This document shows positions 1 through 5,090 of a stretch of DNA of 64,000 nucleotides, piece by piece; the first letter of the stretch is position 1, and every line of letters starts with the position of its first letter. The translations under genes were made by a program, and so were the position numbers. Under the pieces are notes generated by a model. That model worked only from the letters and a program-made list of their open reading frames with translations, searched no databases and was not told the origin of the DNA. The DNA comes from Candidatus Latescibacterota bacterium (GTDB taxonomy: Bacteria > Latescibacterota > UBA2968 > UBA8231), in contig CBDCNM010000002.1 in assembly GCA_965219385.1 (NCBI GenBank), positions 2,288,936 to 2,352,935 on the forward strand, written 5' to 3'.

Positions 1-812
1 ACCGTGCTGTGCCGTCGAGACGAACTCCTGGGAAGGGCGTCGCCGCGGGGGGCGTCGCCGCGGCGTTCGCGTACGCCTTCGTGGATCGCGAGTTGCGGCT
101 CGGCGAGTTCGGTGCCTGGCTGAAGGTCCAGGAATCCATGCGCAGCGAGCGTCCGGCCGCCGACAGCATGCTGACCGCCTGCGAGGATGCCGTAGCGCGC
201 TTCCTGCCGGGTTACGGGAACCTGCGACTTGGCAGCGACGACCGCCCGCAGCTCTGGATTGACCAAGGTACGACGGCGATTCCGGTCCGGCAGCTCTCGG
301 ATGGCGAACGCGGGATACTGGCTCTCGTATTGGACCTGACCCGGAGGCTTGCGCAGGCCAACCCCAATTTCACCGACCCGGCCTCCGAAGCCGAAGCGGT
401 CGTCCTGATCGACGAGATTGACCTGCATCTGCATCCCAAATGGCAGCGCCAGATCATTCACAACCTGACCACCACTTTCCCGCGCTGCCAGTTCATCGCG
501 ACGACTCACTCACCGCAGGTCGTGGCGTCCGTCGAGCCCGATCAGGTTCATCTTTTGGCTCCTGTTGGAATCATCCATCCGGACCGCAGTCTTGGGATGG
601 ATTCAAACTGGATTCTACGCCACCTCATGGAGGCCGATGACCGACCCGAGGATGCGATGGCTGCCATTCAATCTGTTGAGAACTTGATTGCGAAAGGAAC
701 CTTCGAGGAAGCGCACGCCGCGATCTCAGAGGCTAAGAAGAACGGGCTTGACCTACCAGAGTGGTCCGTTCTTGAAGCGCGCATAGCTCGACTGGAGGTT
801 TTGGCCGAATGA
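1..812 (+). CDS. ABC/AAA-family ATPase, PtuA/Septu-like (5' end outside window)
   Basis: ABC signature LSDGER, Walker B/D-loop VVLIDEIDLHLHPKWQR and H-switch IATTHSP; Walker A not in window; stop overlaps the next ATG (ATGA). Confidence 0.9.
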   Translation, partial: RAVPSRRTPGKGVAAGGVAAAFAYAFVDRELRLGEFGAWLKVQESMRSERPAADSMLTACEDAVARFLPGYGNLRLGSDDRPQLWIDQGTTAIPVRQLSDGERGILALVLDLTRRLAQANPNFTDPASEAEAVVLIDEIDLHLHPKWQRQIIHNLTTTFPRCQFIATTHSPQVVASVEPDQVHLLAPVGIIHPDRSLGMDSNWILRHLMEADDRPEDAMAAIQSVENLIAKGTFEEAHAAISEAKKNGLDLPEWSVLEARIARLEVLAE

Positions 813-1519
813 AGTACATCCAGAAGACCGGATGCCCGCACTCTTATTCCAAGTGGTGCGCTGCAGTTGCGGGAACGAATAAGTCTGATTGGCGTGAGGT
901 GCCTTCGACCCAAAAGGACCAAATATTGGCGGCTATGATTGCAGAGCAAGGCGGGTTGTGTGCCTATACGATGCGTCGGATTGACAAGGATTCATCGCAT
1001 TTGGAGCATATCAAGCCACAGAGTCGCTGCCGGAAGGACCTGCGTGGGTCTGACTTGGACTACTCCAATTTGATAGCGTGTTTCCCACGGCGCGATGTGA
1101 AAGGACAGCCTCGCTATGGCGCACGGCTTAAGGATAATTGGTGGGAGAACGATGGCACCGAATTCGTGTCTCCGCTTCAGCCTGCTTGCGAACAGGTCTT
1201 TCGATTCAAGCTTGATGGTAAGATTGAGGCAGTCGGCAATCGAACCGAAGCCAGAACCACGATTGCCGTCCTCGGCCTCGATCACAGAAGTCTTACCGAA
1301 GACCGAAAGCGCTTCATTGAGGAGTTCATCTACGGGCAGACGGGGGATAACCCAATGTCTTACACCGCCGCGCAGCGTGCACGAGACAAGATTTGCGATC
1401 TTAACGGGAATAATCTCTTCTACGAGTTCTGTGTTGCAATACGAGCAGCCCTAGAAGAGCATATGGCAGCCCTCAAGAAACTCCGCCAGCGCAGGAGATA
1501 TGCGCGGAAGAGCAGATAA
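809..1519 (+). CDS. HNH endonuclease, PtuB/retron-associated (TIGR02646-like)
   Basis: EQGGLCAY...HLEHIKPQS...LDYSNLIAC pattern and later TIAVLGL motif; coupled to the ATPase. Confidence 0.85.
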
Positions 1520-1520
1520 C

Positions 1521-4500
1521 TTGCCGAGTGACGACAGGCATTCGGAAGCCGCCTTCGAGATCGTAATCGAAGCGCACCTGCTCCAGAACGAATACGTTCC
1601 CGTTTCCCGCGAGGGCTTCGACCGCGACCGCGCGATCTTCCCCGACACCGTCCTCGCGTTCATCCGCGAGACCCAGCCCGTGGAATGGGCCAAGCTAGAA
1701 GCGCTCCACGGCGACCAAACCGGCGAGCAGATTCTCACGGACCTGTGCAAGTGGATGGACGCCAACGGCTCGCTCGCAACCCTGCGCCACGGCTTCAAGT
1801 GCTACGGGCGAACGCTCCATGCGGCGTTTTTCAAGGCGGCTCACGAACTGAACCCAGAGCTCGAAGCCCGCTACGCAGCTAACCAACTCGGACTCACCCG
1901 CCAGCTTCGTTTCTCCCCTCAGTCGGAGAAATCGCTCGACGTAACCCTAAGCCTGAACGGCATCCCCATCGCCACGGTGGAGCTCAAAAACCCGCTCACC
2001 GGGCAGACGGTAGAGGATGCGATCCATCAGTACCGGCGCGACCGCGATCCCCGCGAGTCGATCTTCGAGTTCAAACGCCGCACACTCGTCCATTTCGCTG
2101 TTGATACCGAATGCGTGCGCATGACCACGCGCCTGGCCGGCGACGCGACTCACTTCCTGCCGTTCGACAAGGGATGTGACGGCGGTGCCGGGAATCCGCC
2201 CGATCCGGCGGGCCGCAGCTATCGGACGGCCTACCTTTGGGAGGAAGTGCTCGCCCGGGACAGCCTGCTCGATGTGCTCGCCCGGTTCATCCATTTGCAG
2301 ATCGAGGAGAAGCGTGACGACCAGGGCAGAAAGGTGAAGGTCGAGTCGATGATTTTCCCGCGCTACCACCAGCTCGATGCCGTCCGGCTGCTGGTGCAGG
2401 CGGCTCGCGACGAGGGCGTCGGGAACAACTACCTCATCGAGCACTCGGCGGGCAGCGGCAAGAGCAACACGATCGGCTGGCTCGCGCACCGCCTCGCTTC
2501 CCTGCACGACGAGGCAAACGAGCGCGTCTTCGACAGCGTGATCGTGGTGACTGATCGCGTCGTGCTAGACCAGCAGCTGCAAGACACGATCTACCAGTTC
2601 GAGCACAAGCTCGGCGTCGTGCAGAAGATCGACGAGCGCTCCCGTCAACTCGCCGAAGCCCTTGAGAACGCGGTCCCCATCATCATCACCACGCTGCAGA
2701 AGTTCCCCTTTGTGTCGCGGCAGTTGCTCAAGACGGCCAAGGAGCGAGGTATCCAGGGGACGGGTACGCTGCCCACGCGACGCTGCGCGGTAATCGTCGA
2801 CGAAGCCCACAGCTCGCAGGGAGGGGAGACGGCGACGGACCTCAAGGAGGTCCTCGGCGGCGAAGACCTGCGGGAGGAGGCTCGAAAGCGTGCGGAGGAG
2901 GAGGGGCGCGAGGATCTGGAAGAGCTGTTCCGCAGCATGGCCAAGCGCGGCCGGCAGGCGAACCTGAGTTTCTTCGCCTTCACGGCCACGCCCAAACACA
3001 AGACCCTTGCCGTGTTCGGTCGGGACGGAGAGCCGATCCATCGCTACACCATGCGGCAGGCGGTCGAGGAAGAGTTCATCCTCGACGTGCTCAAGCACTA
3101 CACCACGTACGCGACCTACTTCAAACTGCTTAAGGCCTGCGAAGACGATCCAAACGTCGAGCGGAAGAAAGCAGCGCGTGCGCTGGCGCGCTTTCTGCGC
3201 CTGCACCCCCACAACATCGCGCAGAAGACCGAGGTGATGGTGGAGCACTTCCACGCCGTCACGCGCCACAAGATCGGTGGCCGAGCCAAAGCGATGGTCG
3301 TCATCGGCTCCCGGCTGGAAGCGGTGCGATACAAGCAGAGCTTTGATCGTTACATCCAGGAGAAGGGATACGCGATTAAGACGCTGGTCGCCTTCTCGGG
3401 GATGGTTCAGGACGACAAGCTCCCGGACGTGGCGTACACCGAGGAGAAGATGAACTCCGGCATCCGGGAGAAGGAGCTTCCGGAGAAGTTCGCAACACAG
3501 GAATACCAAGTGCTGCTGGTCGCGGAGAAATATCAGACCGGGTTCGATCAGCCGCTCCTGCACACGATGTACGTGGACAAGCGGCTCGCTGGCATCCAGG
3601 CCGTCCAGACGCTGTCGCGACTCAACCGCATCCATCCGCTGAAGGAGGACACTTTTGTTCTCGACTTCGTAAACGACCGTGAAGAAATCCGCGAGGCGTT
3701 CAAGGTCTATTACGAAGGTGTGGAAATGGGGGAAGAAGTGGATCCCGCCCGAATGTACGCGGTCAAGGGAGAACTCGACGCCTCCGGGATCTATCTCGAT
3801 GAAGAGGTCGAGCGGTTCTGTGCCGTGTACTTCAAGCCAAGGCAGCGTCAGAGCGCCCAGGACCACCAGGCGATGAACGCCGCGCTCGATCCCGCGGTGT
3901 CGCGCTTTACCAGCCTGCAGAAAGACGAGGAGGACGAGGCGGAGCTCTGGCGCGGAAAGGTTCAAGCGTTCCGCAACCTTTACGGCTTCCTGAGTCAGAT
4001 CATCCCGTACCAGGACTCGGACCTGGAGCGCCTGTACGTGTTCCTGCGCCATCTGGCGGCAAAGCTGCCACGGCGCCGGAGCGGTCGGGCCTATCAGTTT
4101 GACGACGAGGTGCGACTCGAGTACTACCGTCTGCAGAAGATCAGCGAAGACTCGATCTCCCTCGCGGAGGGTGACGCGCATGCCCTGGATGGGCCGACCG
4201 AGGTCGGCAGCGGCGCTGGGCACGAGGAGTCGGTGCCGCTTTCGCAGCTTATTGACGTTGTCAACGAACGCTTCGGCACAGATTTTAATCAGGCCGACCA
4301 GCTCTTCTTCGATCAGATCGTCGAGGCGGCGGTGGGTGACGACGGATTGCGCCAGGCAGCCGCGGTGAACCCGGAGGAAAAGTTCGAACTGGTATTCAGG
4401 AATCTTCTGGAACGACTCTTTGTCGAGCGCATGGACCAGAACGAGGAGATTTTTGTCCGCTACATGAACGACGAGTCCTTCCAGCAGACCGTCAGCGGCT

Positions 4501-5090
4501 GGATGGCCTCCGAAGCGTATCGACGGCTGCGGACCGGCTCGGTCGCGGCAGAGGAATTGCCAACGGACCGGGCGTTTCCGGCGGGACTGCGTCTGGTGGA
4601 AGGCCGGCCCGAGGACCGCTACGTGACCTGCGTGCCGTTTGTCCCGCTCAGGGCCGCAGCGGGTGCCTTCGGCGACCCCCAGCACATCGAGGACGACGGC
4701 TTCGAGTGGGCGGCCGTGGATTCACGCCACCGCTTGCGACCAGGGATGTTCGTCGCGCGGATCGTGGGCCACTCAATGGAACCCGCGGTCCCCCATGGAG
4801 CGTATGGTTTGTTCCGCGCGCCCGTGGAGGGCACGCGCCAGGGTAAGACGGTGCTGGTTCAACTCCACGACGGTGTCGACCCCGAGACCGGGGCGCGGTA
4901 CACCCTCAAGCGGTACGAAAGTAAGAAGGTCCAGGATGGTGACTCCTGGCGGCACGCAAAGATCACGTTGAAGCCGACCAATCCCGAGTTCGAGCCCATC
5001 GTCCTCACCTACGCCGACGAGGGTGAGGTGGCAGTCGTGGCGGAACTGGTGGAGGTGATCGCTGCAATGCCTTCTGACGGCCGCCGATAA
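1521..5090 (+). CDS. hsdR: Type I restriction enzyme R subunit with C-terminal S24 (LexA-like) peptidase domain
   Basis: Nuclease [14 protein letters not shown], Walker [33 protein letters not shown]; tail has AAAG, GHSMEP, TLKRY. Start is TTG 1521 or ATG 1500. Confidence 0.95.

Follow-up and report, generated by a model that had tools for sequence, protein, structure and literature searches.

Locus and gene context

The window, by which we mean the whole 64,000-nucleotide stretch of Candidatus Latescibacterota DNA that was analysed, opens inside a type I restriction operon whose gene order in the genome is hsdM, hsdS, ptuA-like, ptuB-like and hsdR. The genes hsdM (662 aa) and hsdS (435 aa) lie immediately upstream of the ptuA-like gene, outside the window, and their products carry the Pfam domains N6_Mtase, HsdM_N and Methylase_S. 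The ptuA-like product is 401 aa long, its gene starting about 393 nt upstream of the window, while the ptuB-like product is recognised as PtuB by PADLOC (E 6e-56) and scores above the cut-off of TIGR02646. Within the window, the operon comprises:

1..812, + strand: ptuA-like ABC/SMC ATPase, 3' part (PADLOC PtuA, E 5e-81)
809..1519, + strand: ptuB-like HNH nuclease, 236 aa; part of the variable cargo that separates hsdS from hsdR
1500..5090, + strand: hsdR, type I nuclease-motor subunit with a C-terminal S24 domain, 1,196 aa

Pfam assigns HSDR_N, SWI2_SNF2, ResIII, T1R_D3 and Peptidase_S24 to HsdR, and its nuclease motif (D147...E161-x-K163), Walker A (at 316) and DEAH box (at 434) are all intact. 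Against TIGR00348 it scores 200.3 bits (E 5e-59; cut-off 284.55), making it a relative that falls below the cut-off of that subfamily model. A promoter pattern found upstream did not rise above chance.

Directly 5' of hsdM, about 3.7-5.2 kb before the window, lies a gene for a 487-aa DUF4062 protein (L001:9804-11267), preceded by small ORFs that are possibly antitoxin-like. The host genome (G000) also holds eight other HsdR-like matches (C1:261303, C1:1247877, C2:803098, C2:1635893, C2:2182831, C2:2701510, C2:2979625 and C2:3650816). None of the eight has an S24 tail, and two contain an in-frame stop in the alignment.

An S24 autopeptidase domain at the end of HsdR

The HsdR body passes into its tail within a single open frame (1500-5090), with no stop between them. 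The features of the tail are:

4533..4589, + strand: linker (aa 1012-1030) from the last conserved HsdR residue to the S24 module, low conservation
4590..5060, + strand: S24 (LexA C-terminal-type) autopeptidase domain, aa 1031-1187 (Pfam, AlphaFold model, fold search, profile alignment)
4647..4661, + strand: L-R-A-A-A (aa 1050-1054), the HsdR C-terminus if cleaved; predicted latent ClpXP tag
4659..4664, + strand: predicted scissile bond Ala1054-Gly1055, 38 residues N-terminal of the catalytic Ser
4773..4775, + strand: catalytic Ser1092 (396/396 full-domain family members)
4869..4892, + strand: acidic insertion D-x-x-D-P-E-T-G (aa 1124-1131), family-specific, in a hairpin before the catalytic Lys
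4908..4910, + strand: catalytic Lys1137 (394/396 full-domain members)

PF00717 matches the whole HsdR with 26.0 bits and the tail alone with 30.7 bits, against a cut-off of 23.3. When a profile of the tail family was compared with the LexA-like proteins of carrier genomes, the two matched with 98.7% probability (E 3.5e-15). The profile alignment brings the AAG, G-SM and TVK motifs into register and places Ser1092 and Lys1137 on the LexA motifs as a Ser-Lys catalytic dyad. It also reveals two conserved insertions in the tail family relative to LexA. Within the acidic insertion, which LexA lacks in the alignment, Asp1127 is found in 394 and Glu/Asp1129 in 384 of the 396 full-domain members.

The AlphaFold model of the tail domain (mean pLDDT 88.2) superposes on RecA-bound lambda CI (8gmu; Z 13.4, rmsd 2.3, 125 aligned) and on the cleavable form of LexA (1jhe; Z 13.1, rmsd 2.5, 123 aligned; Foldseek E 1.5e-6). 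The best structural matches (8gmu, 1jhe, 8trg, 8s7g and 8gms) span Z 12.5-13.4 and other LexA chains reach 10.5-12.7; since rows within 1 Z count as tied, the model's preference for the cleavable form is no more than suggestive. Searching solved structures with the tail sequence returned unrelated matches only, while a search with the tail alignment brought up LexA and CI, only at E 0.006 or weaker.

The tail is not the LexA of the host, a candidate that was rejected on two counts: a true lexA lies elsewhere in the genome, and HsdR scores far below the cut-off of the LexA model TIGR00498 (12.2 bits against 110.95). A DNA-binding domain of the LexA type at the N-terminus is missing from HsdR.

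The initial annotation had read this region as an intact LexA-type S24 domain on HsdR, and the HMM scan, dyad, site and fold agree in bearing this out. Its motif codons were also right (Ala1052-Ala-Ala-Gly1055 at 4653-4664, Ser1092 at 4773 and Lys1137 at 4908). The tail domain does lie in the span it gave, 4600..5090, but the conserved domain begins slightly earlier, at about 4590 (aa 1031). At the level of sequence profiles and a structural model, the tail is thus confirmed as an intact S24 autopeptidase domain fused to HsdR, with a predicted capacity for self-cleavage.

Conservation and dispensability of the fusion

The fusion is widespread. Among 3,002 candidate proteins in the size range 657-2,093 aa, the tail was detected in 1,488 at E<=0.001, and a library clustered at 50% gave 1,848 tail matches at the same threshold. 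Carriers include Latescibacterota, Acidobacteriota, Nitrospirota, Chloroflexota, Myxococcota, Gammaproteobacteria and Planctomycetota. These homologues speak for a real fusion, one of the points on which the initial annotation would have given way, and together with the conserved residues they led us to reject a frameshift, fusion or assembly artefact. Four contig sets cover 30 of 30 bins with no indels listed; no listed piece spans the HsdR-tail junction.

Among the 150 matches listed from the 50% clustering, 107 full-domain sequences served as representatives and 43 partial ones were left out; site and dyad are intact in 103 of the 107. In the query and its best 120 matches, Ala1053, Ala1054, Ser1092 and Lys1137 are present in 121 of 121 sequences and Gly1055 in 116, the other five having Ser, figures that are inflated because family members were picked by similarity to the query. 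In 36 full-length genes the linker measures 13-44 aa, and the distance from the HsdR end to Pro1046 is 28-59 aa. Across the same number of full-length genes (168 unsaturated of 630 pairs), the median dN/dS was 0.23 for the tail (range 0.08-0.38) and 0.13 for the HsdR body. Judged by these substitution rates, the tail is under purifying selection.

The tail can also be missing. Among the 120 proteins nearest to the HsdR body, it is present in 107 and absent from 13, of which at least two end within the linker and are possibly broken. Tail-less rows are scattered on the HsdR tree (12 changes for 14 rows, of which starred branches require at least four). For example, the same five genes, ptuA-ptuB included, form an operon on a Ketogulonicigenium vulgare plasmid, where HsdR is 79% identical and ends at aa 1012. 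Such tail-less relatives show that HsdR can stop near aa 1012 and be a normal protein, and the tail is therefore an add-on control outside the catalytic machine. Its distribution is patchy: the module was found in only four of 41 genomes searched (the host and relatives), it gave no match in 50,697 phage records, and 72,556 plasmid records yielded one weak match.

Four close HsdR relatives are much shorter (P0123, P0016, P0018 and P0020; 648-702 aa). In P0123 and P0016 most of the motor is deleted in frame, with the nuclease domain and S24 tail intact.

Between hsdS and hsdR lies a slot for cargo. A ptuA-like gene occupies it in 21 of the 35 loci where hsdS and the tailed HsdR type are both visible, and the 29 other cargo ORFs scanned (of 48 listed) include IrrE-like M78 peptidases, DUF4411, RhuM, DUF6575 and extra methyltransferases. 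The IrrE-like M78 metallopeptidase is a frequent cargo (L010, L011, L019, L028, L038 and L055), followed by DUF4411 in L010 and L011; it represents a second protease in the same operons, possibly a damage-responsive one.

The initial annotation had further proposed that the tail might control the adjacent ATPase/HNH pair. This finds no support, as other cargo fills the slot elsewhere and the tail-less operon retains ptuA-ptuB; ptuAB and the S24 tail occur independently, and an obligatory coupling of the switch to PtuAB was rejected. An indirect link, in which destruction of HsdR would free the effector in the manner of PrrC, is conceivable, but nothing in our analysis supports it.

A portable module on defence enzymes

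Other enzymes carry the same S24 module. A Pfam scan of 80 of the 150 matches listed found it on two HsdR types, methyltransferases with a type ISP specificity domain, MmeI-like proteins, McrC, LlaJI, a type III-like endonuclease, DEAD/MZB helicases, SLFN-g3 helicases, Schlafen AlbA_2, PLD nucleases, methyltransferase-HNH proteins and three HTH proteins; in many of the scanned carriers, Pfam called no second domain. Going by these domain calls, the module caps at least ten unrelated types of defence enzyme and is portable. Host types are intermixed on the S24 tree, which requires 55 changes against a minimum of 18. The tree (167 rows, built by a quick method) is weakly resolved, with 17 of 163 branches starred and some BLAST host labels wrong, and was used solely for the intermixing of hosts and not for any ordering of events.

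Several architectures in this survey depart from the common one. In methyltransferase-specificity fusions, the S24 domain is followed by an additional conserved domain, about 200 aa in length, to which the Pfam scans made here assigned no family (P0129, P0142 and P0153; L045:4926-9524, L079:9716-11077 and L081:1-1017), which cleavage would free together with the protease. Small HTH proteins of the CI-like repressor kind carry the same S24 subfamily (L083:9659-10492; P0166, P0174 and P0244) and could be a source or a sink of the module. P0210 (287 aa) has two tandem S24-like domains, the first without the catalytic Ser and Lys. At L104 (G027:C340:26500-29400), a 788-residue open frame ends in a canonical LexA-like C-terminal domain that falls outside the tail family.

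In a second HsdR lineage, the S24 domain sits inside the protein, in the first motor domain (L068:9020-12754 and P0273-P0334). A search with the L068 region returned 120 proteins, of which 71 have internal insertions, 48 are C-terminal fusions and one is unclassified. The insertion point lies between the Q-motif (Y-H-Q) helix and Walker A, and all 71 have Ala-Ala at the cleavage site. With a looser pattern, 72 internal insertions were counted; Walker A and DEAH are present in 72 of 72, the Q-motif in 69 of 72, the full N-terminus in 66 and a match to the nuclease pattern in 55. To judge from this layout, a cut in the internal form would part the nuclease from the motor and leave most of the S24 domain on the motor.

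Probable self-cleavage and a predicted degradation tag

From what was computed (that the fusion exists, that its dyad and site are intact, its fold, its purifying selection, its portability and the internal-insertion form), we infer a course of events made up of cleavage, RecA as its trigger, a ClpXP follow-up and restriction alleviation as its purpose. RecA filaments on ssDNA would stimulate the cut at Ala1054-Gly1055, and the newly exposed L-R-A-A-A is predicted to mark the nuclease-motor, 1,054 residues long, for destruction by ClpXP. The chromosome would thereby be spared when repair and recombination create unmethylated sites. Where the domain is inserted internally, this cut would instead separate nuclease from motor.

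The steps differ in how far we trust them. Self-cleavage at Ala1054-Gly1055 very probably occurs, and its outcome is probably to turn the enzyme off. For a RecA trigger combined with an off outcome, we see roughly an even chance. The complete scheme, in which RecA-ssDNA triggers cleavage and ClpXP removes HsdR as built-in restriction alleviation, we likewise put about midway between likely and unlikely. One weakness of such an off switch is that an ssDNA trigger could be exploited by phages.

The case for a tag starts from the residues before the scissile Gly. HsdR has L-R-A-A-A there, 208 of the 396 full-domain members have L-K-A-A-A, and Ala-Ala precedes the Gly in 392 of the 396; among the 150 matches listed, 104 of the 107 representatives have Ala-Ala and 99 have [LFYW]xxAA at the site. 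In an E. coli screen of C-terminal tags, 91% of the top 100 tags end in Ala-Ala, the strongest ClpXP tags follow the consensus [L/F/Y/W]-[L/A/R]-L-A-A, and weak tags make up 39% of the Ala-Ala tags (PMC10862746). L-R-A-A-A agrees with this consensus at four of five positions, a match of sequence only. Latent C-terminal ClpXP tags beside a cleavage site are described for LexA and IrvR (PMC5742171; PMC10584840).

Portability points the same way. Because the tail sits on many unrelated enzymes, its effect should need no host-specific contacts, and a degradation tag would be the simplest effect independent of the fold of the host protein. In 100 of the 107 representatives among the 150 matches listed, no more than 25 residues separate the S24 domain from the C-terminus, so that the enzyme itself would inherit the new Ala-Ala end.

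In the same genomes, 25 of 33 LexA-like proteins likewise have Ala-Ala at the site, but only six of 19 other S24 proteins do (27 examined, with sites picked automatically and some of them wrong). As Ala-Ala is common in LexA, and is kept where severing might suffice, the chemistry of cleavage, and not selection for a tag, may be what it reflects. The 2014 work of Mo et al. on LexA cleavage specificity reportedly bears on whether cleavage needs Ala at P2.

The initial annotation had supposed that DNA damage or phage ssDNA could switch the motor on or off through loss of the tail. The intact S24 domain and the conserved fusion survive from that proposal. Where it left the direction open, the Ala-Ala ends and internal insertions favour off, by way of a degradation tag or severing more than by mere tail loss.

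Candidate triggers of cleavage

The pocket that receives RecA Phe203 is formed by Phe111, Leu113 and Val153 in LexA, Tyr52, Leu54 and Phe94 in UmuD, and Phe141, Leu143 and Phe189 in CI. It adjoins an acidic patch, and Ala substitutions in pocket residues impair LexA cleavage (all from PMC9926225). With pocket positions mapped by offset from the catalytic residues and not from a model of the complex, the tail family has Phe at Ser-8 in 395 of 396 members (Phe1084 here) and Tyr/Phe at Lys-3 in 387 of 396 (Tyr1134 here), and replaces the pocket Leu at Ser-6 with Ala in 372 of 396 (Ala1086 here). The acidic patch positions, Lys-6 to Lys-4, read G-A-R in the HsdR tail, with no acidic triplet there; the nearly invariant D-P-E/D-T-G insertion (Asp1127 and Glu1129) lies a few positions upstream of the canonical patch.

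These departures bear on a rather unlikely alternative that retains the off switch and changes its trigger. Cleavage would then need no RecA. It might follow, for example, when two HsdR subunits come together on DNA, or go on slowly and constitutively, and would thereby time how long the active enzyme lasts. The exchange of Leu for Ala at Ser-6, the displaced acidic patch and the two tail-family insertions missing from LexA would all be in keeping with this, and the LexA-like IrvR cleaves by homodimerisation without RecA (PMC7101444). Against it, the aromatic residues at Ser-8 and Lys-3 are kept, as in the CI and UmuD pockets, and a dimer trigger would have to suit each host enzyme, which vary in oligomeric state.

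Two further observations concern RecA as the trigger. An alanine scan found charged LexA-RecA contacts to be individually minor, and bulky MBP in place of LexA's own N-terminal domain blocked RecA-dependent cleavage unless the linker was lengthened (both in bioRxiv 2023.10.30.564768). By analogy, the 28-59 residues from the HsdR end to Pro1046 would fit this need for a long linker. The host genome encodes lexA, two recA (G000:C2:1271112-1272080 and C2:1234667-1235641), two clpX (C1:74843-76021 and C1:1030046-1031251) and clpP, the recA and clpX copies scoring above family cut-offs, and the host RecA at L006 keeps the Met-Phe of the L2 loop. Among carrier genomes, recA was found in 48 of 50 and clpX in 49 of 50, which is uninformative because both are near-universal. 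RecA dependence of HsdR tail cleavage is plausible, with two of the RecA-contact features differing from LexA, UmuD and CI, and RecA is the likeliest candidate for the trigger.

Activation, binding or passenger

Cleavage might instead turn the enzyme on, a reading we regard as unlikely. Here the tail would keep the enzyme inactive by dimerising or blocking it, and RecA on phage or damage ssDNA would bring about a cleavage that frees an active or toxic nuclease. UmuD offers a precedent, being activated by cleavage (PMC9926225), and some partners of the module (Schlafen AlbA_2, PLD and SLFN-g3 helicase) look more like effectors than classical restriction enzymes. Moreover, a cell that lost a methyltransferase-specificity partner might be killed by the loss and not protected. 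However, the 71 internal insertions are hard to read as activation, because the cut would split nuclease from motor with most of the S24 domain left on the motor. The freed enzyme would also carry an ssrA-like terminal tag, and for one domain to autoinhibit at least ten unrelated folds would take contacts of which no evidence was found.

Still less probable is a role in binding alone, with the S24 domain dimerising the enzyme or tethering it to RecA filaments or recombination intermediates and the catalytic residues being structural. LexA C-terminal domains do dimerise and bind the RecA groove (PMC9926225; bioRxiv 2023.10.30.564768). Yet the Ala-Gly, Ser and Lys are jointly near-invariant (103 of the 107 representatives among the 150 matches listed), as would be expected only if the chemistry is under selection. 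Finally, a neutral passenger or mis-assembly, to which the absence of the tail from 13 of the 120 nearest HsdRs and its presence in four of 41 genomes might point, is largely refuted and highly improbable in view of conservation, 1,488 long tailed proteins from many phyla and a tail dN/dS of at most 0.38 across 168 pairs.

Relation to known systems

The closest relatives of the HsdR tail are the domains at the C-terminus of LexA and lambda CI (MEROPS S24, PF00717), with which it shares the fold, the Ser-Lys dyad and a partner N-terminal of the cut. Between the Ala-Gly and the Ser lie 38 residues in the tail and 36 in the host's LexA, while the Ser-to-Lys spacing is 45 against 37 in LexA. The tail differs in its two insertions, in the exchange of the RecA-pocket Leu for Ala and in its partner, a 1,011-aa nuclease-motor instead of a DNA-binding repressor. 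LexA and CI control transcription, whereas the HsdR tail would control an enzyme directly. Such regulation of an enzyme at the protein level is known from UmuD/UmuD', through the RecA-stimulated S24 cleavage proposed here for HsdR. UmuD, in contrast, is small, stands alone and is activated by cleavage, where the tail is fused in cis; its structural match to the tail is also weaker (Z 9.1-9.8). IrvR and HdiR of streptococci undergo LexA-like cleavage that exposes Clp tags (PMC5742171), and IrvR is a precedent for a RecA-independent trigger (PMC7101444); unlike HsdR, both are transcription regulators.

After DNA damage, repair gives rise to unmodified sites, and cells suppress type I restriction for this reason (PMC3874165); in types IA and IB this alleviation consists of ClpXP acting on HsdR (PMC12707154). 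EcoKI HsdR has no simple terminal tag and is attacked while translocating, a ClpXP tag having been sought and not found (PMC4231737). EcoKI alleviation persists in a non-cleavable lexA mutant and so needs no LexA cleavage (PMC11109961). EcoKI and the proposal have in common the destruction of HsdR by ClpXP after DNA damage (PMC4231737, PMC12707154), but in the tailed HsdR the tag would be made by self-cleavage, a direct way to that end. The operon layout also has parallels, EcoprrI-PrrC and Septu (PtuAB) placing an ATPase/nuclease effector between hsd genes as here (PMC3874165). No S24 domain is reported for those systems, and in our locus ptuAB and the tail are independent.

A full-text literature search, covering mainly freely available papers, brought up no description of S24 fused to a restriction or defence enzyme. 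A 2025 restriction-modification review contains no occurrence of 'LexA' or 'peptidase' and the ARMADA preprint none of 'peptidase'; mentions of 'S24' in bioRxiv 2022.05.11.491447 proved to be table numbers and not the domain. Databases already label some tailed proteins with LexA, so the domain call exists without the interpretation. The parts are known; what appears undescribed is that they are joined to make a portable switch, working at the protein level, on enzymes of defence.

Implications

How restriction enzymes spare their own chromosome after damage is an old question, and in EcoKI the ClpXP tag resisted identification. The module suggests an explicit route, a self-made tag controlled by a damage sensor, in which Ser1092, Gly1055 and the terminal alanines are single residues that make each step testable. 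A cultured carrier of the tail is available in Corallococcus sp. RDP092CA (L058).

More broadly, and more tentatively, with the chances a little below even, the LexA-type protease may be a mobile cassette by which RecA filaments cut, and ClpXP destroys, a whole class of DNA-attacking defence enzymes. This class would take in type I, III and IV restriction subunits, type IIG/ISP-like methyltransferase-specificity proteins, YprA-like and Schlafen helicases, and HNH and PLD nucleases. The S24 family would be widened from repressors and UmuD to the direct control of defence enzymes, and the module may serve as a ready-made damage-inducible degradation tag. If true, this direct link to the SOS signal, which bypasses transcription, would give bacterial immunity a general and evolvable fuse against autoimmunity, and phages might set it off deliberately.
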